From NCBI RefSeq assembly GCF_003790525.1, contig NZ_CP033636.1: a stretch of DNA of 64,000 bases; one strand, given 5' to 3'. Of this stretch, positions 1,118-59,044 are shown piece after piece; positions within the stretch are counted from its first letter, which is position 1; each line of letters opens with the position of its first letter. The position numbers and the translations under genes were made by a program. The notes beneath the pieces were generated by a model. That model made no database searches, was not told where the DNA came from, and saw only the letters and a list, made by a program, of their open reading frames with translations. The stretch is from Escherichia coli (GTDB lineage Bacteria > Pseudomonadota > Gammaproteobacteria > Enterobacterales > Enterobacteriaceae).

Positions 1118-3574
1118 ATGCGTAAAACTCTAATTGGCTGCATGGTTGCAACTGCCCTTGCTACTGTATCTTCGGCACATGCTCAGGTATTTAGCTACTC
1201 ATTTACAGATACCAATAAGGCTGTTCGGAATATCAAACCTGCAACACAAACATATCTTAATCCCGCTGGTGTTTTGACTCTGAACTTGATATCGGGTCTT
1301 GATCGGTACGAGCGAGTGACGGTCACACGAGACAGCGATAAAAAGGTTATGTATTCCTCCGTCTCGACCAAAACGAGCGTTGCAGATCGTATCGTTGCTG
1401 CCGATGGAACAGAATACTATGGAAAGGATATGGTTCTACCGGCGCTCGGAGAAGGGACCTTTACTGTAGTCAATGAAACTCTGGATATTCGCCAGACTGT
1501 AGTGAGCACATCTACTTATCATTTCATCGTTGATACAACTCCTCCACGCTATAAGAGTATTTATCCGAGTCAAAACGCAGGTTACGACATGGTACTTTCT
1601 GGGCCACTTTGGGAGTTGGGCCGAGGCGGTAGTGGCCAGTTTTCTATATTTGCAGACGGTATTGAGGATGCTAGTGGAATTGACAAGATCCGTCTTGTCA
1701 TTAAACGAAGTAATGGTTCTGTGGTCTCCGACAATAACCTGAGTTATGACACAGCCAATAAACGTGCGTTCTATCCGTGGATTAAAGATATGAACACCCA
1801 GGCTGGCATGCCCTCAAGTGATCTTGATGAAGAATTCACCTTCAATTTCATCGTTACGGACCTGGCAGGAAATACGCTTAACATTCCTCCCCAGCGGTTT
1901 TTATATGACGATCAAATGGGAGAATTTACGCCATTTGCAGTTCATGACTCACGTGTAAGCACCAGTGTTGTACCCGGCATTTCTTCGGGATACGTCCCGT
2001 TTAAACGAGGCCTTACAGTGCTGGAAAACCCCTACAAGTTGGTTATACGTATCCCAAGAACTAACTGGAAGCCATATCGAAATGGTGGCATGAGCATTAC
2101 CAATAACTATGGCGGAGTACAGGTCCTTTCCGAAGATGCCACCTATGTCTACGTGGAAGTTAAGCTGCCACAGGGTGCCTTAGATGGAAACTACTATAGA
2201 CCTGTGAATACATATCAATGGTCTGGAGGAGATCTTGGTCAGTATGCCAGCTGGCTCAACTGGGATCCTGCCTCTGTAAAGAGTCCGGCTTGGGGAAGTT
2301 CACCCATAGAACGACAAAAGGCTGATGGAACATGGTTCAACAGCGTAAACTGGAACCTGTTCAAGGCATCTGATATGCCTATAAAACTTACTAATATCCG
2401 ATTCAATGTACAGGCCAGGCCATATGATCAAAAAATCACTGGCGGAGCAACATGCAGTATTCCAGCTGGCTCAACAACCTGTACCGTCTCTTTGCCCCAG
2501 GATATTATAAATGGCACTACCGGTTATCTTCATAGTGGCTATGAAGTAAGGTCAACCACCGAAGCAACCTTCTTTGCCCCTATATGGGAGAATATAGCCT
2601 GGCATACACTGGGTCCCTCCGTCACTGGATTTGATTACAATGAAACCACCAACATTCTCCAGGTTTACGTGAATCAACCTGGAGATGGTTCATATTTCGA
2701 CCATGTTTATGTAAATCGAGTTTGGTTGTCAGATAAAAACCGTAACAACGCAGAAATAAGCGTAACCGGCAAACAAACAGGTAGAAATATGGCGTCTGGG
2801 AACTACACGTATGAGTTCAACATGAAAGAGGTACCAGAAGGCAGTTATAACGTGGTGATTAATGCCCAAGATACATTCAACAATACCGGTAACCTCCCTT
2901 ATCAAACAGTTGTCGTTGATAATACAGCACCATCTGTAAGTATTAGCTACGAAGGAAAACCGATCAGCAAAAACGTAACAGTATATGGGCTGGAGAACGT
3001 CCGTATACAGCTCACCGATGCTCTAACTAAACCATCCTTAAGCCGTATGACTCTTCGCGGTGGCCCTGTTTCTGATGCGGTGGAATTGTCTTGGGTGAAT
3101 CTGGGAAACAACCTGTATGCACCTAATTATCCCAAGATCTTTCCGTCTCTTAATGAAGGCGAAACATACACTCTCACAGTTCAGGCCAAAGATGAGATGA
3201 ACAACGTTAAAGAAAGCTCAGTCGAATTTAACTACCTTCCAAACAATCTCGTCAGGCTAGAGAATCTGAAAACCTTAGCTGTCAATGCTTCTCTCAAAAC
3301 ATCTGACAATACTGCTCTGGCTGTTCTGTATGCCAGCCAGCTGCGTAAAAAGGATGGTTCAATCGCTACAGGGCTTCAGGACGCAGTGCTTACTGTCCGT
3401 AAGGACGCTGCATTCGGCGTGACTGTAAATGGCGTTTCTGCGATGCCAGGTGAAAGCAAAGAGCTTCAACTGGATTTGGGGCTCGGGGACAGCCGTAGCT
3501 TTCCTATTTTCCCTGCTGTATCCGGCCTTACTGGCAGATCTGAGTTCATGATTAACATTGAAGAATTAAAATAA
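1118..3574 (+). CDS. secreted large Ig-like-domain protein, paralog A
   Basis: 818-aa ORF; signal-peptide-like N-terminus MRKTLIGCMVATALATVSSAHA; DxTxP motifs (VDTTPP, VDNTAPSVS) typical of bacterial Ig-like domains; conserved N- and C-terminal blocks shared with 7768..10188 and 13809..16199. Confidence 0.6.
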   Translation: MRKTLIGCMVATALATVSSAHAQVFSYSFTDTNKAVRNIKPATQTYLNPAGVLTLNLISGLDRYERVTVTRDSDKKVMYSSVSTKTSVADRIVAADGTEYYGKDMVLPALGEGTFTVVNETLDIRQTVVSTSTYHFIVDTTPPRYKSIYPSQNAGYDMVLSGPLWELGRGGSGQFSIFADGIEDASGIDKIRLVIKRSNGSVVSDNNLSYDTANKRAFYPWIKDMNTQAGMPSSDLDEEFTFNFIVTDLAGNTLNIPPQRFLYDDQMGEFTPFAVHDSRVSTSVVPGISSGYVPFKRGLTVLENPYKLVIRIPRTNWKPYRNGGMSITNNYGGVQVLSEDATYVYVEVKLPQGALDGNYYRPVNTYQWSGGDLGQYASWLNWDPASVKSPAWGSSPIERQKADGTWFNSVNWNLFKASDMPIKLTNIRFNVQARPYDQKITGGATCSIPAGSTTCTVSLPQDIINGTTGYLHSGYEVRSTTEATFFAPIWENIAWHTLGPSVTGFDYNETTNILQVYVNQPGDGSYFDHVYVNRVWLSDKNRNNAEISVTGKQTGRNMASGNYTYEFNMKEVPEGSYNVVINAQDTFNNTGNLPYQTVVVDNTAPSVSISYEGKPISKNVTVYGLENVRIQLTDALTKPSLSRMTLRGGPVSDAVELSWVNLGNNLYAPNYPKIFPSLNEGETYTLTVQAKDEMNNVKESSVEFNYLPNNLVRLENLKTLAVNASLKTSDNTALAVLYASQLRKKDGSIATGLQDAVLTVRKDAAFGVTVNGVSAMPGESKELQLDLGLGDSRSFPIFPAVSGLTGRSEFMINIEELK

Positions 3575-3930: not shown

Positions 3931-4470
3931 CATTGTCACTGACAACAGTAGCGACATAAGTGACAACGGGAGTGACTTAAAAGACAATGGTAGAGACTAT
4001 TTCGACGTTGGTAATGATTTTAAGTGACAATGGTAGTGAGGTTAGACTTAAACTTCCACTGTGAGGTAAGGTGACTCGCATTATTTAAATAAATCATTAC
4101 TTTCAATTACTTGCGACACGAGTCTGCATGTATGCTTCTATTTCTCAAAAATTTATCCACCGAAAATGCCTGTGGCTGTGATTTAGCTTTGACGACAGTT
4201 TTTATCAGGGAGGCAAGTTGAGACCTGTATAAGAACTAAGCATTTATTTATCCCCATTTTCCACAAGGTAGTTCCAATAATTAGTACCTTAGTGTTCCTG
4301 ATAGATCAAAAGAGATCCCCGCTGCCTCCAGGCCAGACGGCACAAGGCCTGAGACGTGATCAGTGACAACAGTAGTGATTATTTTGACATTAGTAGTGAT
4401 TATTATAACGTTGGTAATGAGTTTTTTGACATCAGTAGTGATCAGAGCGACAATAGTAGTGACTTTTCAT
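3931..4470. repeat. upstream iteron clusters, candidate oriV
   Basis: two clusters (about 3931-4080 and 4360-4470) of direct repeats of the form TGACAAYRGTAGTGA at roughly 20-bp spacing, flanking an AT-rich stretch and a DnaA-box-like site, immediately upstream of repA. Confidence 0.65.
4153..4161. promoter_or_regulatory. DnaA-box-like site
   Basis: ttatccacc, one mismatch from the TTATCCACA consensus, between the iteron clusters. Confidence 0.4.
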
Positions 4471-4681: not shown

Positions 4682-5770
4682 ATGACTAAAGAGAAAGATA
4701 CTGAGCAGCAGGACCTGGTCACCAGGGCTTTCTCTGTTAGAGAGAAAGAATCAGGTAAAGACATCATTTTGCGTCCTAACAGCAACCGTACGGTGCAGTC
4801 TATTGCTTTGATGCGGCTCGGGCTGTTCGTCCCATCACCAAAGAGTGTGGGGCGTCAAAATCGGGAATATAAAACGGTTGGCTTTGACGCAACGAAAGAG
4901 TTACAGACGCTCTCTTTAATGGAGAGCGAGGGGTTCACCAATATTTCAATTGTCGGTGAGCGTCTTAATATGTCAGTAGATTTTAAGACGTGGATGGGCA
5001 TCATTCGAACCTATGCCAATCATCCGATTAACAATGACACGATAAGCTTAAAATTCACTGAATTCCTCAAGCTATGTACGCCTGAAAATTATCGCTCATC
5101 TACAGCGTCCAGAAAACGTATAGACGCCTCCTTACGCAGGTTAGCATCCGTTACCTTGTCGTTCACCAGTAATAACTCGTCCAAAGTCTATACAACGCAT
5201 CTGGTACAGTCTGCCCTGTTAGACCCGGAATCAGATCAGGTTGTCCTTCAGGTTGATCCTAAGATTTTCGAGCTCTATCAATACGATCATAAGGTTTTGA
5301 TGCAGCTGAAGGCAATTAAGGAGTTGGCCAAGAAGGAAAGCGCCCAGGCTCTCTATACGTTCATAGAGTCATTACCGCCAAATCCTATACCGATATCCCT
5401 TACTCGGCTGAAAAATCGTCTGAACCTCAAAACACGAGCAAATAGTCAGAATGCTACCGTGAGAAAGGCTCTTGAAGAGTTGGCATCGATAGGATACCTC
5501 AAGTACACCGAAATTAAGAAAGACGGAAAAGTATACTTCCAGATTCATAAGCGGGATCCCGATCTGAATTTGAACAATACTCAGCCTCCTTTAGAAGTGG
5601 TTGAAGATGAAGAAGAGAACTCAGGGTCTTCTGTTTTAGAAGGTGAGTTATGCCCACCAGCTGACCCGATTGACGGCGATGATGTTCTTACCGTCCATGA
5701 TTTAACCGCTGAAGAACTGCGCTATATTCGTAGTCTTCGAAGCCAGAAAAAGAACAGCAACGCCAGCTAA
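4682..5770 (+). CDS. repA: iteron-type replication initiator RepA, RepFIB/RepHI1B-like
   Basis: 362-aa ORF; blocks VQSIALMRLGLFVP, DFKTWMGII and RESAQALYTFIESLP match the RepFIB-type RepA family as I recall it; iterons on both sides. Confidence 0.8.
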   Translation: MTKEKDTEQQDLVTRAFSVREKESGKDIILRPNSNRTVQSIALMRLGLFVPSPKSVGRQNREYKTVGFDATKELQTLSLMESEGFTNISIVGERLNMSVDFKTWMGIIRTYANHPINNDTISLKFTEFLKLCTPENYRSSTASRKRIDASLRRLASVTLSFTSNNSSKVYTTHLVQSALLDPESDQVVLQVDPKIFELYQYDHKVLMQLKAIKELAKKESAQALYTFIESLPPNPIPISLTRLKNRLNLKTRANSQNATVRKALEELASIGYLKYTEIKKDGKVYFQIHKRDPDLNLNNTQPPLEVVEDEEENSGSSVLEGELCPPADPIDGDDVLTVHDLTAEELRYIRSLRSQKKNSNAS

Positions 5771-6010
5771 AGTTAACCCGGCGGTTTAGGCTCCGGGTGC
5801 TAAATTACTTCTTCGATTTTCGTTAGTCCCAGCCCGCTCTTTCACGTCAACGGTAATGAGTCAAAAGTCATTACCGTTGTCATTGTTCTCTACCACCCTA
5901 TGTAGATCGAGATTGCGAAATTCAACGCTTTCTCCTGAGTCACCTGTTAACACCCGGTTTCTACGCTTTACTTCATTGGCCAGTACATCCAACGGAAAAT
6001 ATCGTAACGG

Positions 6011-7600
6011 GGTGACAATGGCAGTGAGTTGACCCACTCACTACCATCGACATTCAAATCCCGGCTTCTCTGGTAGCTATAGTGACAATGGTAATGATGT
6101 GTACCTTACTGGCATTGTCATTGTCCTCCGAGTGTGCGTTCAGCTTTGGGAGGACACCGGAACTTAATGCGGCGAGTCACGGCCATTGTGAATCTCGATT
6201 GGATTGGCGAATACGGCTTCCGGTTGGGCCAGATGTCAATGGTTATGCTTCATCCAGCTCATTACTGTAGTCATTGCCGTTCAGTTGAGCTGATGCTCCT
6301 CTCATTCTATATGGCGACAACGGTAGTGAGCCCAGAAAGTGACTACCGTTGTCATGGCCGTCCAGTAGAGCGGGTCAACCTCTTAACTCACAGGGTGACA
6401 ACGGTATTGAGCCCAGAAAGTCACTACCGTTGTCATGGCCGTCTGGTTAAGCAGATCATCCTCTCAATTCACAGGGTGACAATGGTAGTGAGCCTATTAA
6501 GTCATTACCGTTGTCATTGCCATCCAGAAGAGCGGATGATCCTCTCAATTCATACGGCGACAATGGCAGTGAGCCCAGCAAGTCACTTCCGTTGTCATAG
6601 CCTTCCAGAAGAGCAGATGAGCCTCTTAATTAACAGGGTGACAACGGTAGTGAGCTCATTAAGTCATTACCATTGTCATGGACGTACAGCTGAGCTGCTC
6701 ATCCTCTCAATTCACACACCGACAATGGTAGTGAGCTATTAAAGTCACTACCATTGTCATATACGTCCAGTTAAGTGGACCATCCTCTCAATACACACGG
6801 TGACAACGGTAGTGAGCCATTAGAATCACTACCGTTGTCATTGCTTTTCAGGTGCACTGATAAGGCTCTCAATAGACACGACGACAATGGCAGTGAGCAA
6901 TTAGAGTCACTACCGTTGTCATTGCTTTCAGCTGAGCTGATAAGGTACGTCATTTACACGATGACAATGGCAGTGAGCCAATCGAGTCACTACCGTTGTT
7001 AATGCCGACCAACCGAGGGAAGGGTCCGCTCAAAGAACTGAGTGACAACAGTAGTGAGATCATCCAATCACTACCATTGTCAGCTTAAACCTGTAGGACG
7101 AAGAGGCTTGTCCGATAAAATGACGACAATGGAAATGAGCCTATCCATCACTACCACTGTCATTAAAGTCCAGCGGTTCAACGTTAATCAGTAGCTCCGG
7201 ATGACAATGGTTGTGAGTCAGGCAATTCCCAAGCATTAGGTGACAGCAGCGTAACACCTCTAAGCTCACTTCTGTTGTCAGGGGTTAGGGTATTGAGTCT
7301 CTACCGTCGTCAGTGTTTCTGAGACACCAGTATTGCAGATCACTACAATTGTCACTTAAATATCGACGGGGGAGTAGATGCAAGTGACTGGCTAACCAGT
7401 ACCAGTTTAGATTCAAAACGATCCCATCTTTGTGGATGCGCTTGAGTAAGCTCGTATGACGATATGTCAGAGAAGTGACAACAGGTGTGAGTTGCCGGAC
7501 TCACTCCCGTTGTCATCCCCGGTTGAAGGAAGAGAATCCCCGGGGCTGTATATTTACCAGGTATCCTTACTCAAGGGGTTCGACACTCACTCCCATTGTC
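6011..7600. repeat. downstream array of ~80-bp repeats, each with a palindromic RepA-site-like core
   Basis: about 18 units of GTGACAAYGGTAGTGAG-N7-9-TCACTACCRTTGTCA separated by related ~40-bp spacers; units decay toward 7600; same core as the upstream iterons. Confidence 0.8.
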
Positions 7601-7767: not shown

Positions 7768-10188
7768 TTACTTCAACTCGTCGATCTGAATCATGAATTC
7801 TGAGGTGCCAACTTTCCCATTTTCGGAAGGATAAACGGGTAACAGAAGATTATCCCCCTGGCCCATATCTATTTGCACCTCAACTGACTCGCCTGGAGCC
7901 GCCTGTGCCCCATTAAATTTAATACCGAAGGCTGCATCCTTCCGCACAGTCAGCGTTGCGTTCTGGACCCCTTTAGCAATTTCTCCATTTGTCTTACGCA
8001 GAACGTTAGTGGACAGGTACGCAAGTGGTACGCCATCTGTCGTTTTGAGAGGTGAACTGACCGACAATGTGCGTAGATTATGTAACTGCACAAGGTTATT
8101 CGGTAGATAACTGAACTTCTGAGTATAGGTTTTGGTATTCGACTGACTATCGGCAACTGTTACGCTAATTGAATAATTTTCAGATGGTTCGAAATTTGGG
8201 AACAGCCTCGGATACTCAGGCATGTATGTATCTTTGCCTGCCGGTGACCACGTAAGCTCAACGTTATCAGCTGTGGGGCCACCTACGAGCTGAAGACGGG
8301 TTATCCTCGGGGTTGTCAGATTATCTGCCAGAGCGATCCTGAGGTTCTCCAGGCCGTACACTACCGTATCGTCTTTTACCGGCTTTCCGTCGAATGTTAT
8401 GGCCACTGTCGGAGGAGTGTTATCCAGAGCAATTTCTCCGAAAGTTTTATTGGTCTGGTTCTGGAAGAAGTCCCTGATGTTGACCTCAACGTTGTATTTT
8501 CCTTCAGACTGACGGGATAAATCATAAGCAATCGTGTAGTTACCTGAGATACGAGATTTGATTACGCCTGTTGGTGACATCCGGGTACCGGTGTTCTTAT
8601 CGGAAAGATAAAATTCCCTCAATGAGACCGAGTCGAACCAGTTACCATCGCCTTCAAGTGACGCCAGTACATCCAGCTGCTTGTTAGTCTCGTCATATGA
8701 TATCGAGTTTATTACCGGCAGTTGTTTATTGTTCCAGCGTGTCATAATCCATTGCTCAGACCGCAAAATGGGATTGCTGATGCTGCGAACGAAGTAAAGG
8801 ATTCTATTGTAGCCCTGGGTACCCAAGGCCATATCAAACGTCTCAGGCGCTTCACACGAGGTTTTTCCTGCCGGAATGGTGCAGGTCGCCTTACCGCCGA
8901 TCTCCTGTGCAAAGGGCCGGGCTTCAACGTTAAAACGAAGTCGGGAAATTTTAATTGGCAGTCGTGATGAAGCCACACTCTCAAAATCCTTCCACTTAAC
9001 CCAGTTCCCCTTATCATCGAGGAAATCTACCCAGGTACCCGCAAATGCAGGCGTTTGGTTTGCAGATGGGTTTAGAACGAGGCTGTATGACGGATAATAC
9101 CCTCCCCACTGGCCAAAGTTCGCCATACGAGCCATATCCCCATTAATTGAGCCATAGGGAAGAGTCATTTCAACATAAGCATAAGTGCTGTCTACAGCTA
9201 TCTCTTTGGGGGCGGAATATTGATTGATGAACTGAAGCCCACCTTCTGAATAAGCACGGTAGTTAGATTTTGGGATCCGGTAGACTAATCGAATAGGGTT
9301 TTCGTTAACGACCATACCGGCTTTGTAAGCCGGATAATTAGAAACCCCGGGTACGACGCTGGAAGACGTATTTGGATCATGAACGGCCCACAGTGTCATC
9401 TCACCCAGCGTGTTGTCGTAGCGAAATTTTTGAGTTGGCAGCGTTCGGCTATTACCTGCGTTATCGAAGATAACAACTTTTGCAGTAAAGTCTTCATCCA
9501 GGTTGCTGTCTGGTATTCCGGTTCCCTTAACTGAATTCTTAGAGTAAGTGTGGTACATCTTTTGGCCGGATACGTCATACTGCATCTGTGTAGTGCTGTA
9601 GAGGCTACCGTCCTGCCTGTAAATATATATTAGGCCCTTATCAATACCATTTGCATCACTTACGCCCGAAGAGGTGAAGTCATACTGCCCCGTTGCCTCT
9701 AATCCAAGCTTCCACACGTCACCAGCGGTAGAGCCAGAACCAGTATTAGCGGTAAGAGCATTTGCCGCTGGAGGGGTGACATCAATTAGCCAGTTATAGT
9801 TATAGGTCGCTACAGGCTTCTGATTGAGATCTAACACGTTTATCTGAACGACAAATTTGCCTTCACCCAAAGCAGGCAAAGTTACTTTTTTGCCGTAGAA
9901 CTCACTACCGTCAGCAGCTGTTAGTCGGTCTGATACACCCGTCCGTGTAGTCGTAGTATTAAGAATGACAGTTCCAGTGTCTTTCGTGACTTTGACATTA
10001 ACGAAACGATCAAGACCTGAAATAAGTGTCAAAGTTACCGGTGATGCCGGATTAAGCATAAGACGAGAAGACGGGGCGTGGATCTCAATACCGTTCGTGT
10101 CCTTAAAGGCCGATTCATATATCTGAGCTGGGGCCTGAACAGACATACCGAGTCCGGCTACAGCAGTAATAAAAGCGAGATGTTTCAT
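7768..10188 (-). CDS. secreted large Ig-like-domain protein, paralog B
   Basis: 806-aa ORF; signal-peptide-like N-terminus MKHLAFITAVAGLGMSVQAPA; motifs IDVTPP and LDNTPPTVA; C-terminal block FSYLPNNLVQLHNLRTL...TVRKDAAFG shared with paralogs. Confidence 0.6.
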   Translation of the reverse strand: MKHLAFITAVAGLGMSVQAPAQIYESAFKDTNGIEIHAPSSRLMLNPASPVTLTLISGLDRFVNVKVTKDTGTVILNTTTTRTGVSDRLTAADGSEFYGKKVTLPALGEGKFVVQINVLDLNQKPVATYNYNWLIDVTPPAANALTANTGSGSTAGDVWKLGLEATGQYDFTSSGVSDANGIDKGLIYIYRQDGSLYSTTQMQYDVSGQKMYHTYSKNSVKGTGIPDSNLDEDFTAKVVIFDNAGNSRTLPTQKFRYDNTLGEMTLWAVHDPNTSSSVVPGVSNYPAYKAGMVVNENPIRLVYRIPKSNYRAYSEGGLQFINQYSAPKEIAVDSTYAYVEMTLPYGSINGDMARMANFGQWGGYYPSYSLVLNPSANQTPAFAGTWVDFLDDKGNWVKWKDFESVASSRLPIKISRLRFNVEARPFAQEIGGKATCTIPAGKTSCEAPETFDMALGTQGYNRILYFVRSISNPILRSEQWIMTRWNNKQLPVINSISYDETNKQLDVLASLEGDGNWFDSVSLREFYLSDKNTGTRMSPTGVIKSRISGNYTIAYDLSRQSEGKYNVEVNIRDFFQNQTNKTFGEIALDNTPPTVAITFDGKPVKDDTVVYGLENLRIALADNLTTPRITRLQLVGGPTADNVELTWSPAGKDTYMPEYPRLFPNFEPSENYSISVTVADSQSNTKTYTQKFSYLPNNLVQLHNLRTLSVSSPLKTTDGVPLAYLSTNVLRKTNGEIAKGVQNATLTVRKDAAFGIKFNGAQAAPGESVEVQIDMGQGDNLLLPVYPSENGKVGTSEFMIQIDELK

Positions 10189-10652
10189 TCTTATTCCCCT
10201 TTAGGTTTGGTGTTATTTTAAGCTTTTCCTAAAGGTCACTATGTTCGTAAAAGTATAAAAAACTTCTCCATATGGTGCTCGAAATTACAAATCTATAATT
10301 TGCCTTTCGACAAACCTTATTGTGCGTTCAGGACGTAAATCTTTCTTTTTGGAATTACATCTGACATTGCTGTGGTATCCAAACTGGCAACGATTGCAAA
10401 ACTTATAACATTAGCCTGAAACTATCGGCATCCACATATCGCATTAAGTGATGCTTTTACTTTGTGTAAAAAAGAATCAGGATAAATTAGGTATGACAGA
10501 TATAAATGCGTTAACGGACGGCATATATGAATCAAAACCTGGCGGTATTACGCCACCAGTCGAGAGGGGAGTGAACCTCAGTCAGTACGTCTACCTTCGT
10601 TCCGCAAGGCGCTTCTTGTTGTGAATTACAAACTGCCCTGGCGAGAACTGCA

Positions 10653-11264
10653 TCATTTCACCCCCAGCAACACACGTGCCTCTTCAACGGTTTGCCACGA
10701 AGGCATTGCTACGCCAGATTGACTGCCGTTGCCTCTGCGCTCACCGGTGTCACATTCTACATAAAGACGCATCAGCATCGCTTCTATTTCAGCGGCCCGG
10801 CTATTATCCATTACCAGTTCTGCTGCGCGTCGTAGCTGTTCTGGAATGTCATTCCACATTCCCGCACCACTTCTGTCTTTGTTAGTGAGCAAGTCTTCAA
10901 TAGCAGATGAAGCCATGTTAAGCAGGTCAGCCGAAACTAAAGGCATCGGCGGGGCGGTATAGAGGATTCGACGTCTTCCGCGTCTGTCTGGATCGTATTT
11001 ATCATAAAAAGCTTTGTTCACATCTTCCCAGTGCCACTGAAGTTGCCCGGTTGCGTCATGGTGGCAAAACTCGCACTGATAAACAGGCGCAATCGACATA
11101 ACTGCCTTTCCAATACGTGCCAGTACAGCAACTTCGTCAGCTCTAAGACTCATTGCTTCGCTTGGGTTACTACCCTCGGAAAATTCCAAAATTTGTTCAA
11201 TACGTTCTGGTGTGAAAGTGGTCATAGGCTTTGAAAACATATTTTTTCCAGTTGTGCTTACCAT
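10653..11264 (-). CDS. hypothetical protein, last gene of a minus-strand four-gene cluster
   Basis: 203-aa ORF downstream of the methyltransferase gene on the same strand; start codon uncertain. Confidence 0.45.
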   Translation of the reverse strand: MVSTTGKNMFSKPMTTFTPERIEQILEFSEGSNPSEAMSLRADEVAVLARIGKAVMSIAPVYQCEFCHHDATGQLQWHWEDVNKAFYDKYDPDRRGRRRILYTAPPMPLVSADLLNMASSAIEDLLTNKDRSGAGMWNDIPEQLRRAAELVMDNSRAAEIEAMLMRLYVECDTGERRGNGSQSGVAMPSWQTVEEARVLLGVK

Positions 11265-11284
11265 ATCATCAGGCCTTAAGAGCG

Positions 11285-11548
11285 TTAGCGAATAATTAAC
11301 AGGTCAGGACCAAAACTAAATCCTTCCCCCATACGGTCTTCATGACGGGAGACATATGCCTTACCGTATTTCTCCAGATCCTGTAAGCGATCTTTTGCCA
11401 GATTCCACGAGTATTCCTGGCCCCACACGGGTCCGTCACGCCCGTCAAAGCGGTCAGGTTTACAATTTGCTTTCAGAAGTGCGTAGACATGCTCCAGCGT
11501 GGGTAGCTGCAAAGCACTATTAGCCTGAGAAACGGCAGTATGCGTCAT
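11285..11548 (-). CDS. hypothetical small protein
   Basis: 87-aa ORF packed between neighbouring minus-strand genes. Confidence 0.4.
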   Translation of the reverse strand: MTHTAVSQANSALQLPTLEHVYALLKANCKPDRFDGRDGPVWGQEYSWNLAKDRLQDLEKYGKAYVSRHEDRMGEGFSFGPDLLIIR

Positions 11549-11641
11549 TTCTGTTCACTCTTTATTGATTTAGTCAGTTAAGCCGGTCAGGTAACTTTAA
11601 CCGGCTACTCGTATTAAGATTTCTTTCCGGTTGCTTGTCAG

Positions 11642-12466
11642 TTAGCGGCGAAGATCAATTTCAAGGCGGGCTGTTTTGACCTTTGTTCCGGACTCCCTAA
11701 ATGTATCATCCGGAAGAGGCGAAATTTGTCCGCCAAGTTGTTTGACTCGCTCCCTGAGCGCTTTTGTCAGTGTGTCTTCCCGGAACAATACCCCAGCTGA
11801 CAGAATGGCCTGTAAGCGACCTCGCTTAGCGAGCATTGCGATGGCATGCATGACATGTTTAACGTCAGAGCGTTTAAGGAATGGTGGATTCATAACGATA
11901 ACATCAAAAGTTTCATCGGGCTGGTACCCAAGAAAGTCGGTATGCACCAGCTCGGCCCCTGTGCTAAGGACACTATCGTTCTTCACTGCAAGGAATCGCT
12001 CATCGTTCAATTCGATCCCGGTAATCAATGCATCCGGAGCCGCCAGTTTTAAGGCTTTCAGAATGCGGCCATCACCAAACTCAGGCTCCAGAACACGTTC
12101 CCCGGCAGCTGGTTCAGCGCGTAGAACCATATCTGTGACTAAATTCTCAGGGGTAGGGAAGAAATTGAACAAATCACGTGGGATGTCGACCGAACCTGTC
12201 AGAATGATTTGCTCGATACGCTCAGCTGCATCCGCCGTAAAAATATGTGCCTGCTCTTTTCGGTTCCATTTGCCACCGGCAGCTTCCAGCACTTTGTTTG
12301 TCTTAACATAAATGCTGCGGTCGAGCTGGTCGGCCAGGAAAAGAAAGTTCCCTTCAGCACGGCAGCGAGATAAGACGTTCAGAACTTCAGTTGAGATTTG
12401 CATTAAAACTCCATTAAGAGGATTTACCCGCCTGGCGGCAGCGGGTTGGTTACTTAAACAGGACAA
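11642..12466 (-). CDS. N6-adenine DNA methyltransferase-like (SAM-dependent)
   Basis: 274-aa ORF with a glycine-rich SAM motif (LEPEFGDG) followed by catalytic NPPF (DVIVMNPPF). Confidence 0.65.
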   Translation of the reverse strand: MSCLSNQPAAARRVNPLNGVLMQISTEVLNVLSRCRAEGNFLFLADQLDRSIYVKTNKVLEAAGGKWNRKEQAHIFTADAAERIEQIILTGSVDIPRDLFNFFPTPENLVTDMVLRAEPAAGERVLEPEFGDGRILKALKLAAPDALITGIELNDERFLAVKNDSVLSTGAELVHTDFLGYQPDETFDVIVMNPPFLKRSDVKHVMHAIAMLAKRGRLQAILSAGVLFREDTLTKALRERVKQLGGQISPLPDDTFRESGTKVKTARLEIDLRR

Positions 12467-12483
12467 TTCAGATTTGGCCTTGG

Positions 12484-13248
12484 TTAGTCGGCAGACAACA
12501 GCAGGGATGGGCTGTTATAAGCGAAGCGGTCAACGGGAGCCTTCTCAAATCGCTGACCGCTTGCATCAGGGGTCAGAACGAGTCCGTTATGGGCGCAATG
12601 AATGTGGAGCAACATATCCCCGCCGGTGTTGATGTGTAAGGCAGGCACACCCTGATCGATTTCGAACATGACACCAAAACAGGGGTTACCTTCCTTGTTA
12701 ACAACTTCACAGTGGATGTTATGTTGGCCGGTAACGCTGACCTGATAGGCCTGACTGTCCTCTTCTCTCAGTGTTTCCTCCTCCAGGCGCCAGTCCTGAA
12801 GTGTGAGGCTAATTTCAGGGGTATCATGCTCCTTCTGAAGAGCCTGGATACCTTTACGGAACAGCTGCATCATTTCATGAGTAAGGCAGTCTTCCTCAGC
12901 TCCAAAATGTTCTTTCCAGCCTTCAGGATCTGCATACATCCAGACGTTTTTAGCGAGCGAAGGTAAGGAAGCATCAGGCTCTACAAGGAGGTGAGGGATG
13001 CTCTCTTTGATTCCGAGATAACGTACTGGCTGGCCGTTAAGCGGTAACCCATCCGGCACTGTAACTTCAGCTCCTGGCAAGACGACGCTGTTTACCAGAC
13101 CTCCACAATGTTCTGCCACCACCCGGCCTAAATCTGCCATAAACATCCGATGCTTTTCTGGTGAGTCCAGCTCACCAAGGAGTTCAGGTTTAAGCAGTAA
13201 ACCGGTAATAATCTCAGTCAGTTCACGAGGAGATACTAATTTATACAT
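12484..13248 (-). CDS. hypothetical protein, first gene of minus-strand cluster
   Basis: 254-aa ORF; RBS-like aaaggaaaa upstream of the start; 17-bp gap to the methyltransferase gene. Confidence 0.5.
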   Translation of the reverse strand: MYKLVSPRELTEIITGLLLKPELLGELDSPEKHRMFMADLGRVVAEHCGGLVNSVVLPGAEVTVPDGLPLNGQPVRYLGIKESIPHLLVEPDASLPSLAKNVWMYADPEGWKEHFGAEEDCLTHEMMQLFRKGIQALQKEHDTPEISLTLQDWRLEEETLREEDSQAYQVSVTGQHNIHCEVVNKEGNPCFGVMFEIDQGVPALHINTGGDMLLHIHCAHNGLVLTPDASGQRFEKAPVDRFAYNSPSLLLSAD

Positions 13249-13275
13249 TTTGTTTTCCTTTTCTGTGTTGGCTTT

Positions 13276-13311
13276 ATATTAACAATCCAGATGCACGAGC
13301 TAATAACCTCC
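13276..13311 (-). promoter_or_regulatory. island promoter module, minus-strand copy
   Basis: reverse complement reads GGAGGTTATTAGC-N19-TAATAT, positioned upstream of the 13248 start. Confidence 0.45.
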
Positions 13312-13808
13312 AGACAACTTTTTCAAAAATTATATACTTAAAGCAGGGGCTAATATGCGCAAGAAATGAATTTAGGAAGGATGGCTTCAAATTTAACTTT
13401 TTGGTTTTTTATTTTAGACGGACTTTAAAATAGCATCGCTGGTAAAATAATAAACATGGTTTATTTTTTGTTTGTATTGACAATCAAATGGGTAAAAATT
13501 AATTTACTTACATGGCGTATATTTAATGCCACCGTCCCGGCGGCACCGGGCATAAAAGGAAAACCATCTTGAAACCAATGCTCAAAAAAGATTTTTTTTC
13601 AGCTATTGAAAACCTTCTCAAAGCTGGCTTTCAACCTCGCTTTTACACTGTTAACAGTGGACGAATCGGTCTCATTACATTCACTGATAAAAATGGAACA
13701 AAACAGGTCCCGCCGGGCAGAAAAGAAAAACATTAAAATTAGCTATTTTCCCGAAAAGATCTCGAACACTGAAAAAGTATCATGGGGAACCTGATCAGGA
13801 GACAACCC

Positions 13809-16199
13809 ATGAAAATCAAACTAGCCCTGCTTATTGCATTTGCAGGTTTCAGCGCAGGAGCTTCCGCTGAAATCGCAGAATTCAGCTTTAAAGATACCCT
13901 GAACGTTAAAAAGACCGTATCGCCTGCATCCGTATGGATTAATCCGGTAACGAGCTTTGACGTTGCCGTTATTTCCGGTCTGGACCGTTATATTACGCTC
14001 AGTCTGCTGAAAAGTGACGGGAGCCTCATCTGGAGCACGAAAAGCAGCCTGGTTACCGTAGATGACCGTACCACATCTTCGACAGGCTTTGATTATTACG
14101 GCAAGACTCTGACCGTACCAGCGATGGGAGAAGATAGCTTCACCCTCAGAGAGGTGATTACCGACTTGCAAGGGAAGGAGGTCTCCCGGCAGGATTACCC
14201 GCTTGCAATTGACCGAACGCCTCCGGCAACGGGTACCATAAGTTATACGAGAAACGGGTGGAACTTTGGCAGCGAAGCGATCTTCACTTCAGTACCAGCC
14301 GGTATGCAGTACGCCAGCGTCCAGGCACTGGTCTTTAATGGACTGAGTGATAAAGGTTCCGGGCTTGCTAATGCTGAATATTTCATAACCGATGCCGCTG
14401 GAGTGGAGCGTAAAAAGCCAGCGGAAATTAATACAGTGGAAGGTAGCGTAACCGTTCAAGTCGCCGACGCAAGCAGCAATGCCCTGGCACCGGAAAACCG
14501 CTCTGAATATAAAGTGGGGATCTACCTTTATGACAAAGCGGGAAACAGGATCGAACTAAGCCGCCGAAGCGTAATTGATCGGGTTAAGCCTGACGATATC
14601 ATCCAGGTGCAGGACGCCACTACCGGATCATGGGTCACTTATCAGTCTGGCATGACCGTCTTCCAGAACCCTATTTCCGTACGGGTATTAAGGAAAAAAA
14701 GTGACTTTACTGCTGTTAACGGTTCCAAATATGGCTGGGCGGACTCGAATTTCCAGACGTCCGATAGCACTTATAATATTTATACTTTCAAATACATATA
14801 TCCCAATGTGGGGGATACTTATCATGAATTCCAGACTCTGGCAGGAGGAGTAAGACGAATTCATCATAACTCCCTCAACTTCACTCCAGCCCCGGCGATG
14901 GAAATAGCCCCGAAGATAGTGGCTAAAGAGATGTACCGGAGTGATACCAGTGAGTGGTTAACTCAGGCCTCAATCAGCGTTAAAACCGCCACCATTAGCC
15001 GCATAAAGGTAACCGCTGAACCCCGACCATACGTGCAAAAGTTCAGAACGGTAAAAAATGCAGCCTGGTTCTGCACTATACCTATCGGACAAAGTTCATG
15101 CGAGATGACGGTTAACTTCAACTACACCAGTGACAAAGGATTTGAGTATCTGCACCTTTACTCGGGAAAAGATGGTGACAGCATATTCGATGCGCTTGCT
15201 GGTAATTTTACGGTTATCTGGGATAACAACCCACCGGTGGTTAATGTCGCTCAGGTAAACAAGGCCTCCAAGACAATCACTATGACGGCCACCGATAATG
15301 ATCGCGTCAACGCCTGGAACATCAGCTACTGGGATACCAAAGTTTTCGAAGCCACCCTTAAAAATGCCCGGGGGGAACCTTTCACGCTGAAGCCTGTGAC
15401 CGTCAGTGAAAGCGATTATAAAACCAAAAACGCCACCTTCTCATACGCTGGTCTACCGGACGGGGATTATACGGTGGTTAGCGTCTCTGCCACGGATCTT
15501 GTTGGAAACACCGGAACCAAAACGCTTAATGCACCGCTGAAAATTGACTCAACGCTTCCGGTTATCGCGTTCAGTTTTAATGGCGCAGACGCAGAAGGAA
15601 AACTGGTTAAAGGGCTTGAGAACCTTCGCATAAGCGTTACTGATGCCTCTGGGGATGCTTCCCTGACATCGCTTCAGCTCGCTGGTGGACCTAACTCTGA
15701 AAAGGTCACCCTGGCATTCACGCCGTTATCCAAGGATGTCTTTATTCCGGAATACCCCAGAATCTTCCCCAACACTGACGAATCGGGACAGATGTATCAT
15801 CTGGAGGCACTGGCTATTGACGAATCAGGTAACCGGACCACTAAAACGCTTAATTTTACCTACCAGCCTGCGAATCTGATTATGCTGGATAATCTCAAGA
15901 CGCTGGCCACAGCCGTAGCACTGAAAGCAACGGACAACACGCCGCTGGCCATCATCCGAACCAGTGTGTTGCGGCGTCAGGACGGTTCTATCATTACCGG
16001 ACAGTTAAACGGAACCCTGACTGTTCAGAAAAATGCCCAGTTCGGCGTTACGGTTGCCGGAGTTACGGTCCAGCCTGGTGAAACTAAATCGCTGTCACTG
16101 GATCTTGGTAATGGTGAAGAGCGCACGTATCCCGTTACTCCCGCTGTAAGTGGTCAATCTGGCACGGCCACATTTGCTATAGAATTCCCTCAAACATAA
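13809..16199 (+). CDS. secreted large Ig-like-domain protein, paralog C
   Basis: ORF 13782..16199; likely start at MKIKLALLIAFAGFSAGASA (13809); motifs IDRTPP and IDSTLPVIA; C-terminal block FTYQPANLIMLDNLKTL...TVQKNAQFG shared with paralogs. Confidence 0.6.
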   Translation: MKIKLALLIAFAGFSAGASAEIAEFSFKDTLNVKKTVSPASVWINPVTSFDVAVISGLDRYITLSLLKSDGSLIWSTKSSLVTVDDRTTSSTGFDYYGKTLTVPAMGEDSFTLREVITDLQGKEVSRQDYPLAIDRTPPATGTISYTRNGWNFGSEAIFTSVPAGMQYASVQALVFNGLSDKGSGLANAEYFITDAAGVERKKPAEINTVEGSVTVQVADASSNALAPENRSEYKVGIYLYDKAGNRIELSRRSVIDRVKPDDIIQVQDATTGSWVTYQSGMTVFQNPISVRVLRKKSDFTAVNGSKYGWADSNFQTSDSTYNIYTFKYIYPNVGDTYHEFQTLAGGVRRIHHNSLNFTPAPAMEIAPKIVAKEMYRSDTSEWLTQASISVKTATISRIKVTAEPRPYVQKFRTVKNAAWFCTIPIGQSSCEMTVNFNYTSDKGFEYLHLYSGKDGDSIFDALAGNFTVIWDNNPPVVNVAQVNKASKTITMTATDNDRVNAWNISYWDTKVFEATLKNARGEPFTLKPVTVSESDYKTKNATFSYAGLPDGDYTVVSVSATDLVGNTGTKTLNAPLKIDSTLPVIAFSFNGADAEGKLVKGLENLRISVTDASGDASLTSLQLAGGPNSEKVTLAFTPLSKDVFIPEYPRIFPNTDESGQMYHLEALAIDESGNRTTKTLNFTYQPANLIMLDNLKTLATAVALKATDNTPLAIIRTSVLRRQDGSIITGQLNGTLTVQKNAQFGVTVAGVTVQPGETKSLSLDLGNGEERTYPVTPAVSGQSGTATFAIEFPQT

Positions 16200-18640: not shown

Positions 18641-18866
18641 CGTCTGACCTGAAACCGGTAGGCCAGGGAAGGCAACCGGGAAAATGCAATTTAACCTGAT
18701 CCTCTCCCTACCACTACCTTTACCCACGTATAATAGCCCGACCAAATTATAATGCCCGATCACCGCATTGGCTGAAACCACACATATTCTTCTTAGGCCT
18801 CGCCTGATGAACTTCGACCACAAGACAAAGGAACGTAACTAATAAATAAAATTTATGAGCTGCACA

Positions 18867-18877
18867 AAAGTTACTTT
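18867..18877. repeat. AAAGTWACTTT palindrome copy
   Basis: exact aaagttacttt, 120 bp upstream of a promoter module. Confidence 0.6.
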
Positions 18878-18986
18878 TCCATAATGGCGCTTCACTTACA
18901 TTGTGGTTTCATAATCATTGTTGGTATTTAAAAAGGATGTGTTCAATCTTAAATAAAAGGCGGTGTTTTTTTTCTGAAAATTTGCT

Positions 18987-19023
18987 GGGAGGTTATTAGC
19001 TGGGGGTTGGGTAACAGTATAAT
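18987..19023 (+). promoter_or_regulatory. island promoter module copy
   Basis: gggaggttattagc then 19 bp then tataat, upstream of the 19048 start. Confidence 0.5.
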
Positions 19024-40630: not shown

Positions 40631-41504
40631 GAGGTACTCCAGTTCTGCCCGGTACCGCCGGGGCGGTGGTGCGAAAGCCGCACCATGAATGACACTATGA
40701 TCCTCCTGACTTCTATTGTCAATACAATTGAAGCGGCGTTTTATTTATTCATTATTTGGACCCGGCTCGTACGGAACGACCGTCGGGACTTGCCGATCTT
40801 TCTACGGTGAGCAGGGGAAGGGAACATCCCAACGCTTGTTTCCAGATGTGCAGCCTGGGAGGGCGCAGAATGCCTGACAGAATCATCGTGCAGCGGTGGC
40901 GAAAGACCCGACAAACGGGAAAAGCATCCTTTTATTCCAAATCCAACCTCAGCTTTTAATTACGCCAGTACGTTTCCTAAACATGCCAAATCGGTCTCTT
41001 ATACGCCCGGATGGGCCCGATGAAAACGATAAAATGAGAAAAAGAACCCGACACATCGCTGCTCTCTGGGAAAGCCGGTCAGCAGATGGAGCGCCAGAAA
41101 CTAAATCCGCTGGTTTTAATAATGATTGAGGAGAACAAGATGAAAGATAACAAGACACGTCCTGTAGACTCGTATGCTCATGCTGATTTCATGGAGTCCG
41201 TCTTCAGCAACCTCAGGGCTTTCTGTGATGCGGAATGCCAGCGGCTAACTGCCGGTTATCCCCCAACTGTCAAACCAGAACAGCAAAGCACTGACGGCCA
41301 GCTGTCGGCGGCATAAAGCATTACCTGCCAGTTCGTTCAAATTTCTGCTTCCTTAAGCCCGGGCCAAAAGCCCGGCTCAATCCAAAAACTGAACGTACCA
41401 GTTTACCTCTATATCTCCTGAATCCCCTGCGACTTACAAGAGACCCGCACCGGTTTAGCCATTCCTGTCCTGCCACTCTCCCATCACTGGCCCAGACAAC
41501 CGGA

Positions 41505-41515
41505 AAAGTAACTTT
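41505..41515. repeat. AAAGTWACTTT palindrome copy
   Basis: exact aaagtaacttt upstream of the ParB-like gene. Confidence 0.6.
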
Positions 41516-41630
41516 TCTCTCTGAGTCACCTTCTGAACCAGTTATTTTGCTTAAACGTAAAAACGGCCCACTGTTGTGAAGATTTAAAACGGACGGATCG
41601 AGTAGTATTGCCTCAGGAAAATTTTTAAAA

Positions 41631-41641
41631 AAAGTTACTTT
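41631..41641. repeat. AAAGTWACTTT palindrome copy
   Basis: exact aaagttacttt, abutting a promoter-module variant. Confidence 0.6.
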
Positions 41642-41651
41642 TTCTTCTCCG

Positions 41652-47274: not shown

Positions 47275-47456
47275 TAGCCTGCAATTTTAACTATCAGGAT
47301 GAAACCCATGTCCAGCAACCGGAAAAAGAATTCATATCAACCGAAAAGCCCTGCCTTAAAGTGAAGCGTATTAAACGTGAAGGATGCTGAATTAGAGGGT
47401 ATCGGTTTTATACTGAAGCGTAACTGGAAGAAGGATCTGAAATTAACTATTACGGA

Positions 47457-47467
47457 AAAGTAACTTT
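47457..47467. repeat. AAAGTWACTTT palindrome copy
   Basis: exact aaagtaacttt in intergenic DNA. Confidence 0.6.
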
Positions 47468-47630
47468 CTGACTCACCACGTACGCCCCTCGGTTATGCCA
47501 TACAGTTTGATACGAAAACAGATCAGTAAGTAGATTGCTATACGCCGGAGAGAAGTCTATTTTTCATACACCGAACCTGTTTGGCCTGCAATGGAAGCAG
47601 GTATAATAATCACATACAAAGGAGGGCATT

Positions 47631-51226: not shown

Positions 51227-52307
51227 GAAAAAGAGCTAGCCTCTGATCGTGATTGCAATAGTTGTTACGCCACATCGTCGGGATACCCAGGAGCCAGTGG
51301 TACTGTTTAGGTATGATTTGGTCGATGAGGCTTAACTCCGCCAGTTCTTTATGCTCTGCGCTTTTCCACTCGATCTGTCCCACATCAGGAACAAATACAG
51401 CGGTCCTTACTTTTGCGGCCTGGCGGGAAAATTCTATAAAGTTGATGCCCCACGGCGTCCAGTATCTGTACTGCTCGTTTAGGCCGATGTTAAACACCGG
51501 CAGAGAAAGAGTTGAGTCGGCAAAAGCCGAAATCACATTTTTGCAGACTCTTGGACTATCTATTTTTTCCTGTTCGGTTTTGAGATGAGTCAGCAGTGCA
51601 CGGTCAATAATGCTGTTAAAGGTGTTTGTATAAAGGCCATTAGGGTCAGGAAGCCGATCTATGGCAGTAATGATTTTAAATTTTAACCGAGAAAGAAAGG
51701 GAGAGTCCTCAATAGTAACTATATGACTATGTGTTGTTTCTGGATGAATCTGGGGTTTGATGCGCTGTACTTGTTTAAAAGAGACACTACCTGGCAAATT
51801 AATGAATGCGCCCACCGTGCGTGTCAAATCGACGAAATAAGGCAAAAGATAACAACCAAGCATACGGGCATTCTTCTTTACAAGATCACACCGTTCGTCA
51901 TTGTTATCGAAAGAAATACGGAAACTAACGAATTTACGTTCAGGACCTTCGCTGGTGGTCAGCGATTGAATCCATTCATGGCATGAACCTTGTGGTACCG
52001 ACCAGTAGCTGGTTTCACGGTCCCCAAAGGGATCAGTCGTGATCAACTCTCCCTTTAAAAGGAAAAGCTCAGACAGGGTATTTGCCATGGAGAATAGGGA
52101 ATCGATATCGTTGCTCTGACAAAATTTTCCCAAATGATGAAACGCGTTTTTTTCTATCTTAGTTAGCCGATCTCGAACTTCCTGAGAATCTGCGTACTTT
52201 AAACCCAAAGACTGAAAGCGCCTTTTTACGAGCGAGCGACATTTGCTGACTTTTAGTGCAGAGCTTAAAATTTGCTGGCGCGTCAGGACAATTTTTTCAT
52301 CCATCAA
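51195..52307 (-). CDS. hypothetical protein
   Basis: 370-aa ORF overlapping the coupling-protein stop by 4 bp. Confidence 0.45.
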   Translation of the reverse strand: MMDEKIVLTRQQILSSALKVSKCRSLVKRRFQSLGLKYADSQEVRDRLTKIEKNAFHHLGKFCQSNDIDSLFSMANTLSELFLLKGELITTDPFGDRETSYWSVPQGSCHEWIQSLTTSEGPERKFVSFRISFDNNDERCDLVKKNARMLGCYLLPYFVDLTRTVGAFINLPGSVSFKQVQRIKPQIHPETTHSHIVTIEDSPFLSRLKFKIITAIDRLPDPNGLYTNTFNSIIDRALLTHLKTEQEKIDSPRVCKNVISAFADSTLSLPVFNIGLNEQYRYWTPWGINFIEFSRQAAKVRTAVFVPDVGQIEWKSAEHKELAELSLIDQIIPKQYHWLLGIPTMWRNNYCNHDQRLALFREWRESNGCG

Positions 52308-57300: not shown

Positions 57301-57540
57301 GATTGACTGTTCATTAAATGTCTGTATGCCCGTCGGACGAGTTGGATACTCGATGAATTTCAGGACTTCTGGATTTGGATGATCAGGAACAGTGTACTTC
57401 TGATCTCCTAGAATCTGCGCAAAAGGAGAGAGGCTTGATATATCCTCAATCATTACAGAGGTTGCATCATTCTCCTGAGATGAGAATATCCCCAAAATCC
57501 GTTTAATACATAAATACAGCGCCCTGAAATTCATCATCAT
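54388..57540 (-). CDS. traI: conjugative relaxase, MOBH-type (HD-domain)
   Basis: 1050-aa ORF; histidine triad ENHHHNG and HD motif VHDAGK as in MOBH relaxases; acidic central region; gene order relaxase then coupling protein. Confidence 0.65.
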   Translation of the reverse strand: MMMNFRALYLCIKRILGIFSSQENDATSVMIEDISSLSPFAQILGDQKYTVPDHPNPEVLKFIEYPTRPTGIQTFNEQSILSLYREKLHSISMMLAISDSDIRDDAYTFTNLVLKPLVEYVRWIHLLPASENHHHNGIGGLLSHSLEVAILSLKNAHHSELRPIGYQDEEVVRRKVYLYAAFICGLVHDAGKVYDLDIVSLNLASPIIWTPSSQSLLDWARENDVVEYEIHWRKRIHNQHNIWSSVFLERILNPVCLAFLDRVNKERVYSKMITALNVYTDGNDFLSKCVRTADFYSTGTDLNVLRDPIMGLRSNDAAARAISTIKHNFTSININNYNAKPMHIIIVNGEVYLNENAFLDFVLNDFELHKYNFPQGEAGKTVLVESLVQRGYVEPYDDERVVHYFIPGIYSENEISNIFRNGIGKLEFYNLLKLRWIGLIFDSYKIPDSVPGLFSVNANKDFIYIDEQKTVTEYRRPVPGRDAITKITDTVETAVLKVNDLGRSTASIDVDIHSKKNEGSSDDFEKKAESDNEIDNDTQIVKSEGEEAADPVIPDIEESEDESAKDTESHVLVNQLHELLLSAPLSNDYIVCVDAVPYLNIDATMALLPGLDEKAFSEEPYFQLTFREGSLDGMWIVRDIDDLRLVQLGDNCAGFQLTYHEPRRPTTLKSLFNTSMYQALVINDESSVENSAPRPKQTLELPPPRVNAVEEHSGDVEYHGTDSASATGPLKTEAVEYEHYQHLFEEEDEEHEIIDYTDFTQLSVSRPEVGSCATSSSVHNEKLLPEPSELPELNREQNADPQGTIERSMDVSVGQENSEPDTEGNCPPPAEVVYSQTEAAATSVMASEEPALPPVLEESNGEHAPTDAKGHHLSPALARLFAPTAPVEKQNPKRNRNKSSDKAEVQKPASPVSGHNLNSKVFATTESDQNGEFSLISEGDVTELEFVEIASVLHQILSKMEVAFKRKRKNRFMVSTPNTLYLTQSCVEKFGSQLEAQDLFNKLPQYLVNSGAVINTKCHAFNMPTLLAASDRAKVDIERIINNLKEAGNL

Positions 57541-58817: not shown

Positions 58818-58949
58818 GAACAGAAGATTTTTGAATGCTCTTTGATGAGGGAATTGAACAGATGTAATGCACTCGCTGTTTCCCCCATTCGGGAGGGGCC
58901 TTCAGAAACAGTAACAGCGAGTTTAGCCTCACTTCCATCGCTACCCTCT

Positions 58950-58960
58950 AAAGTTACTTT
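58950..58960. repeat. AAAGTWACTTT palindrome copy
   Basis: exact aaagttacttt in the divergent intergenic region. Confidence 0.6.
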
Positions 58961-59044
58961 TGAGGGAATGACCATTGTGGATTATTGCTTTTGATAATGT
59001 GCATTGCTCTATTAAAGTTATACATATATCTAGTGCCACTTTTC

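Follow-up and report, generated by a model that had tools for sequence, protein, structure and literature searches.

The Escherichia coli contig NZ_CP033636.1 (assembly GCF_003790525.1) carries, within the 64,000-nucleotide (nt) stretch analysed here (the window), an array of four consecutive minus-strand genes at positions 10653-13248, which we designated gA, gB, gC and gD. Our analyses suggest, with moderate confidence, that the array is a conserved accessory part of IncHI2 plasmids made up of independent establishment-type genes, and that one of them, gB, encodes an orphan methyltransferase that probably acts on DNA adenine and would aid the plasmid in evading restriction. The four genes are listed below in their order along the minus strand.

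12484-13248, minus strand: gA, 254 amino acids (aa), WP_000277497
11642-12403, minus strand: gB, methyltransferase, 253 aa from the ATG or 274 aa from an upstream TTG, WP_001167416
11285-11548, minus strand: gC, 87 aa, WP_000149861
10653-11264, minus strand: gD, 203 aa, or 195 aa from the alternative RefSeq start

Conservation of the four-gene array in IncHI2 plasmids

The open reading frame (ORF) calls coincided with the four coding sequences annotated in RefSeq. When gA, gB and gC were compared with their copies in an IncHI1 variant, the proportion of nonsynonymous differences (pN) was 0.16-0.23 and that of synonymous differences (pS) 0.74-0.77, the latter being saturated. The low pN against the saturated pS indicates that these three ORFs are real genes under purifying selection. 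The gene content proposed in the initial annotation of this DNA (254 aa, a methyltransferase with NPPF, 87 aa and 203 aa) was in this way confirmed. Its description of the genes as tightly packed was confirmed only in part, as the intergenic gaps gA-gB, gB-gC and gC-gD measure 80, 93 and 20 nt.

The whole 64-kb window is backbone of an IncHI2 conjugative plasmid, with a 100% match to plasmids typed as IncHI2A/MOBH/MPF_F. The segment 10400-13800, which spans the array, shows 100% identity to many plasmids of E. coli, Salmonella and Klebsiella; in PLSDB it was found at an identity of at least 95% in 1092 plasmids, and at least 80% of the segment was covered in 1016.

gB as an orphan methyltransferase with a TaqI-like core

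The product of gB contains motif I (VLEPEFGDG) followed by motif IV (NPPF, encoded at 11879-11890), which is the gamma order of motifs. In a search against PDB sequences the best match was the catalytic domain of M.TaqI (residues 73-178, E 1e-6), and the best solved-structure matches by sequence, M.TaqI and 7vru, are DNA adenine methyltransferases. PHROG searches returned 'DNA methyltransferase' families together with internal segments of giant proteins, and the match to phrog_9133 (E 3.6e-45) covered nearly the whole of gB. From PADLOC we obtained the generic MTase_II and oMTase profiles and a partial match to mad2 (4.5e-14). The best Pfam match was a weak one to MTS, the 'methyltransferase small domain', and the NCBIfam matches, to PrmC/HemK and Erm, all lay far below cut-off.

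The gB family comprises 1910 clusters, nearly all of about 250 aa, and the 120 closest relatives listed are, with few exceptions, stand-alone proteins with a length of about 246-258 aa, from many Proteobacteria. In a 24-member alignment of homologues at 45-73% identity the NPPF motif, residues L105, P107 and G110 of motif I, E131 and D156 were invariant, the motif I residues E106 and G112 were nearly so, and much of the N-terminal 75-aa domain was invariant too, with the pattern QLDRxLY..NKV..GGKWN.K..AH.F. The order of motifs I and IV and the sequence match are what gB has in common with the M.TaqI type, with NPPF in place of NPPY. The two differ in length (421 aa for M.TaqI vs. 253 aa for gB), in the additional N-terminal domain of gB and in the absence from gB of a partner endonuclease. 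The gB chain ends about 78 residues past NPPF, a length that suffices to complete the Rossmann fold and no more; a C-terminal target-recognition domain of gB was seen in neither the M.TaqI alignment nor the 24-member family alignment.

Judged by its sequence, gB is an intact orphan S-adenosylmethionine-dependent methyltransferase with a TaqI-like catalytic core. Because its motifs are invariant and its matches are to M.TaqI and to DNA methyltransferase families of PHROG, the protein looks active as an enzyme, and its substrate is most likely DNA adenine, methylated at the N6 position.

Relatives of gB in establishment regions and polyvalent proteins

A 30%-identical relative of gB (187 aa) is found in the leading region of IncF plasmids, beside DUF3560 and an antirestriction gene, and DUF4942 proteins align with gB from its N-terminal domain through NPPF. 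A further relative is part of P0332, a 1484-aa protein encoded on a metagenomic contig (locus L019, 1473-5927) directly downstream of an ArdC-N gene. In this protein DUF3560 is combined with a gB-like methyltransferase (residues 1007-1176, 38% identity, E 1e-27) and a gC-like domain (residues 1302-1381, 39% identity, E 2e-17), the latter placed after the methyltransferase, just as gC comes after gB in the window. The whole of gB also matches an internal segment of giant polyvalent proteins of phages and conjugative elements (phrog_9133, phrog_15406, phrog_11358; DUF3560-methyltransferase; DUF4942); in contrast to these, gB and gC of the window are separate small genes and not domains of one delivered protein. 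Because relatives of gB occur in establishment regions and in polyvalent proteins beside ArdC-N and DUF3560, an anti-restriction or epigenetic role is the best guess for its function, and this part of the initial proposal is retained.

Among the anti-defence and establishment-region genes of plasmids, orphan methyltransferases form a leading class (PMC11541004; PMC7736820), and M.EcoGIX of pESBL protects entering DNA (PMC7736820). In common with these leading-region enzymes, gB is carried on a plasmid, lacks a cognate nuclease and has small neighbours of unassigned function, and the role presumed for it, protection from restriction, is the same. Homology of gB to M.EcoGIX was considered and rejected on grounds of class. 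M.EcoGIX, which belongs with M.BceJIII to the single-strand-specific leading-region enzymes, is of the beta class and has DPPY (PMC7736820), and gB has the gamma order with NPPF; M.EcoGIX can serve as an analogue only. The array differs also from type II restriction-modification systems, as it has no adjacent endonuclease gene and is flanked by genes for immunoglobulin-like (Ig-like) proteins.

Independent distribution of the four genes

The initial annotation regarded the four genes as a co-transcribed module, possibly a cryptic defence system. Their distribution among plasmids speaks against functional coupling. At the same place in the IncHI1 plasmid pSA20030575.1 there are a gA paralogue, gA (61%) and gC (68%), with neither gB nor gD. 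Among PLSDB plasmids at 60-80% identity gA was found in 278, gC in 281 and gB in a single one. A rare IncHI1 variant carries the gA paralogue, gA, gB (73%) and gC followed by other genes, again without gD. Conversely, gB occurs without gA, gC and gD in a Klebsiella variicola plasmid, where a 56%-identical homologue follows hok/sok and stands among unrelated small genes of the same strand.

Natural disruptions of gB by insertion sequences (IS) were also found. In p8C59-NDM (L017, 1543-3992) an IS91 element splits gB, and in pECN24_MCR1_V (L018, 1543-3192) ISApl1 truncates its 5′ end; gA, gC and gD are intact in both plasmids. Since a disrupted gB is tolerated next to intact gA, gC and gD, it does not appear to guard against a linked nuclease. 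Judging from these occurrences the four genes are not an obligate unit and are independently distributed.

In most IncHI1 plasmids the slot of gB is occupied by an unrelated 113-aa ORF (L002, 6966-7307), and that of gD by an unrelated ORF of 232-234 aa. This arrangement suggests that genes are exchanged like cassettes between flanks that stay fixed (gA, gC and the Ig-like gene).

No defence system was called by PADLOC-DB 2.0; two or more system-specific components were nowhere detected together, and the search returned only the generic and partial mad2 matches of gB. As gA, gC and gD had no match in PADLOC, Pfam or NCBIfam, the earlier view of gB as an orphan methyltransferase with no restriction endonuclease beside it was upheld.

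gC, a small protein family shared with phages

The gC product matches phrog_11469 (E 4.6e-15, residues 18-86), and its family profile comprises 277 representative clusters, mostly of 70-130 aa; a PDB sequence search gave nothing usable. Members of the phrog_11469/gC family sit in phage early regions and in plasmid establishment regions. On sequence evidence the family is common to T4-like phages, to IncHI plasmids, where it stands downstream of gB, and to polyvalent proteins of conjugative elements.

In the pseudo-T-even phages RB16, Miller, Lw1, IME-CF2, CfP1 and Xman the gene of the gC homologue overlaps the end of a DNA methyltransferase gene by 4 nt (L009, 1620-2782 in Miller and L010, 1593-2752 in RB16; the homologue has 84 aa), which suggests translational coupling of the two. 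The methyltransferase in question is annotated as C5-cytosine in phage Miller. Elsewhere, a gC-like gene was located two genes from a DUF4942 methyltransferase (L020) and another three genes from a phosphoadenosine phosphosulfate (PAPS)-reductase/DndC-like gene (L022). No DNA-modification neighbour accompanies gC in IncHI1 plasmids and in five or six other contexts, including L011, L012, L014, L015 and L016. The neighbourhoods sampled amount to about 12 contexts only, and the idea that the gC family is an accessory factor of DNA methyltransferases, either tuning methylation or acting jointly against restriction, seems to us unlikely.

gA and gD

The gA product gave no match in PHROG or in PDB sequence searches either. 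Its N-terminal domain is helical and conserved, and its C-terminal domain is a beta-meander; the family of about 30 clusters comes entirely from large MOBH/MPF_F plasmids of enterobacteria. Two tandem gA paralogues are present in IncHI1 plasmids, and in Klebsiella IncHI1B plasmids gA-like genes are found beside psiA. By this sequence distribution gA is a lineage-specific protein of H-type plasmids. Its N-terminal domain was found also in other proteins, fused to DUF5983. Residues P21, E26, H47 and C48 are invariant in the family and are followed by a nearly invariant GG, and the His-Cys pair could be a catalytic or metal-binding dyad. The resulting HCGG (residues 47-50, at about 13099-13110 of the window) closes the N-terminal helical domain. 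A 258-aa hypothetical gene of the IncF leading region was considered as a relative of gA and rejected by tblastn.

Over residues 14-148 gD is 35-57% identical to the N-terminal portions of DUF551/DUF550 proteins of prophages; for residues 141-203 the resemblance is to the C-terminus of Ead/Ea22-like proteins, with 70-88% identity over the last 40-63 residues. By these alignments gD is a mosaic protein of lambdoid-prophage type. It shares flanking modules with early-region proteins of lambdoid prophages (Ead/Ea22-like PF13935, DUF551 PF04448, DUF550 PF04447), yet it is plasmid-borne and scores for none of their Pfam domains; no Pfam match appeared even at E <= 10, and PF13935 and PF04448 gave none. 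A PDB sequence search with gD gave nothing usable.

A remote-homology search of the neighbours of gB for nuclease or ATPase folds, advised by the initial annotation, was answered for gA, in which no such fold and no recognisable fold of any kind was found. For gD the structural model (predicted local distance difference test score, 59.7) was too poor to settle the question, and Foldseek against PDB returned nothing at E < 0.4.

Putative expression signals

Two candidate signals bracket the array.

13276-13329, minus strand: putative promoter region of the array, a 32-nt shared element with a -35/-10-like pair at its end
10539-10559, minus strand: terminator-like hairpin with a 7-bp stem containing 5 G-C pairs, then a T-run; a consensus match only

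The 32-nt stretch at 13298-13329 upstream of gA matches the stretch 18970-19001, located upstream of the ORF at 19048, at 78% of positions, and the two have an exact 14-nt core in common, GGAGGTTATTAGCT. Both copies end in TTAGCT, which is followed after 16 nt by TAATAT or TATAAT. On the gA side the -35-like TTAGCT lies at 13298-13303 and the -10-like TAATAT, beyond the 16-nt spacer, at 13276-13281; the pair is weak and agrees with the consensus at 7 of 12 positions. The array had earlier been described as read from a minus-strand copy of an island promoter module. What is left of that description is the match to one other site: many copies of such a module had to be rejected, as the GGAGGTTATTAGCT element occurs in two copies in 64 kb, and a sigma-70 scan called no minus-strand promoter upstream of gA. 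We also considered an Frpo-like single-stranded DNA (ssDNA) promoter upstream of gA and rejected it, since the fold there is unremarkable (z = -2.05).

The terminator-like hairpin follows the stop codon of gD at a distance of 94 nt, and the same scan found no hairpin of comparable quality between the four genes. Because a hairpin follows gD and none comparable separates the genes, it is plausible that all four are on a single transcript.

A different repeated sequence, the near-palindromic 13-mer AAAAGTWACTTTT, occurs in the window about ten times as often as expected (40 strand-matches at up to 2 mismatches vs. 3.8 expected; 16 sites at up to 1 mismatch). Its sites include 885-897, 950-962, 18866-18878, 23078-23090, 41504-41516, 41630-41642, 47456-47468, 58949-58961, 59434-59446 and 62494-62506, among others, and the majority precede operon starts by 90-230 nt, namely those of the Ig-like gene at 1118, the ORFs at 19048, 23296, 41732, 47631 and 59522, and mobI. 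The 13-mer has the look of an operator at which a plasmid-encoded regulator would act. In IncHI1 a perfect copy stands before the gA paralogue (L005, about 3085), and gA in IncHI2 has only a degenerate copy with 2 mismatches (13389-13401).

Surroundings of the array in the window

The array is flanked by two convergent or divergent paralogous Ig-like genes (DUF4165/Big_3) encoding about 800 aa each, and repHI2 with its iterons is a few kb away. In all, three paralogous secreted Ig-like proteins of about 800 aa are encoded around repHI2 and the array, at 1118-3574 (plus strand), 7768-10188 (minus strand) and 13782-16199 (plus strand). Their IncHI1 counterpart has the domains DUF4165, Big_3_2 and Big_3_3, and the three proteins differ from the characterised RSP protein of R27. 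Downstream of repHI2 (4682-5770) there are about 12 iteron-like 81-nt repeats at 6007-7091, each with a 40-nt inverted repeat (TGACAACGGTAGTGAG...), and shorter repeats related to them are found upstream of repHI2, at 3935-4424.

The transfer genes lie towards the other end of the window.

52304-54388, minus strand: coupling protein
54388-57540, minus strand: MobH relaxase
58278-58817, minus strand: mobI

Overlapping inverted and direct repeats (AAAAGTGACCCTATG...) occupy 59029-59198 directly upstream of mobI, with the inverted repeats at 59092-59197. The origin of transfer (oriT) of R27 and SXT lies beside mobI, and by analogy the repeats found here are the probable oriT of the plasmid.

A plus-strand array of small genes extends over 16.6-48 kb. 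Among its members are hok, DUF957, DUF3085, an HNH gene, a DndC-like gene and another methyltransferase, and by its content it looks like an anti-defence or establishment island. The DNA-modification genes of this backbone region are located at 21203-22453, 25637-28021 and 29097-29663 and, just outside the window start, at L001 1-717. Their products are a 416-aa site-specific DNA methyltransferase, a DndC-like protein of the PAPS-reductase family (794 aa), an HNH protein and a DUF4942 methyltransferase of 563 aa.

Proposed role of the array and alternative explanations

In the model that we favour, the array would probably be read as one transcript from the weak promoter at about 13.28-13.33 kb to the hairpin at about 10.55 kb. 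The gB enzyme would then methylate plasmid DNA, and possibly host DNA too, so that the methylated plasmid may escape restriction on entry to new hosts; an epigenetic role of gB on the plasmid is a secondary possibility. The products of gA, gC and gD would not be subunits of a restriction or defence machine, and gC may assist or complement methyltransferases.

Several observations weigh against this model. Some 46 kb separate the array from the candidate oriT next to mobI, and it runs opposite to the plus-strand small-gene array; in both respects it seems to depart from M.EcoGIX. Nor is early expression in the recipient, as for M.EcoGIX, indicated, because the region upstream of gA has no Frpo-like fold. 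The negative outcome of the sigma-70 scan counts on the same side. The combination of NPPF with an MTS-type signature is found also in ribosomal RNA (rRNA) and protein-glutamine methyltransferases, so that a DNA substrate of gB is predicted rather than proven. Our literature searches found no methylation data for gB or its close relatives and no methylome data for IncHI2 plasmids; with regard to the four genes they found nothing relevant for IncHI2 or R27 and no published characterisation. Finally, the same order of the four genes is kept in almost all IncHI2 plasmids, which may reflect a joint function that we do not see.

This conserved order, kept in about 1000 IncHI2 plasmids by a methyltransferase and three unassigned genes on one strand, would also be expected of a cryptic restriction-modification-like or methylation-based defence system, in which gB protects self and gA, gC or gD acts as the effector, and the weak partial match of gB to the MADS profile mad2 could be read in the same way. 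Because losses of gB are tolerated and no nuclease or ATPase signature was found, we hold such a system to be very improbable. The IncHI1 plasmids have gA and gC without gB, IS91 and ISApl1 have inactivated gB in plasmids with the other three genes intact, no candidate effector was recognised by PADLOC, Pfam or NCBIfam or in the fold search with gA, and the relatives of gD are ordinary prophage early-region proteins. A narrower form of coupling would make gB and gC a two-gene unit, with gC as a dedicated methyltransferase partner, either a modulator of activity or specificity or a co-acting anti-restriction factor. The 4-nt overlap of the homologous genes in pseudo-T-even phages, the order of the two domains in P0332 and the gC-like genes near the DUF4942 methyltransferase and the PAPS-reductase/DndC-like gene are in keeping with this idea. 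It nevertheless remains unlikely in our judgement, as gC is kept without a methyltransferase in about 280 IncHI1 plasmids and in L011, L012, L014, L015 and L016. Moreover, the adjacency was seen in a sample of about 12 contexts, and chance adjacency is to be expected fairly often, given how common methyltransferases are in establishment regions and polyvalent proteins.

Two further alternatives accept gB as an enzyme acting alone and differ in its target. As MTS, its best Pfam match, is a domain used by rRNA m2G enzymes, as the sub-cut-off NCBIfam matches are to PrmC/HemK and Erm, and as some sources call gB homologues 'predicted RNA methylase', gB might methylate RNA, or glutamine in a protein, and so act on a host or plasmid factor. 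We find this quite unlikely in view of the solved-structure matches to the DNA adenine methyltransferases M.TaqI and 7vru, the DNA methyltransferase families matched in PHROG and PADLOC, and the embedding of the gB family in polyvalent proteins of conjugative elements and phages and in anti-restriction neighbourhoods. Alternatively, gB could methylate DNA as a Dam/CcrM-like regulator of IncHI2 replication, transfer or the Ig-like surface-protein genes, with no part in restriction evasion. Its place in the backbone between repHI2 with the iterons and the three Ig-like paralogues would suit such a regulator, as would its lack of an obvious leading-region position or orientation and of an ssDNA-promoter-like fold upstream of the array. 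The natural IS knockouts of gB and its absence from most IncHI1 plasmids with the same flanks indicate, on the other hand, that no backbone function depends on it, and the regulatory explanation comes without a specific target motif; we regard it as distinctly doubtful.

Restriction evasion by an orphan DNA adenine methyltransferase, carried in an array of independent genes, is accordingly the explanation that we prefer, and we advise against entering the array in catalogues as a new multi-gene defence or restriction system. A testable activity is predicted for gB alone among the four genes, and the gB-gC pair is the one linkage of note. IncHI2 plasmids rank among the main vehicles of mcr-1, mcr-9 and carbapenemase genes in Escherichia, Salmonella, Enterobacter and Klebsiella. 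If the proposed role is true, a backbone methyltransferase that helps in crossing restriction barriers would add to the broad host range of these plasmids.

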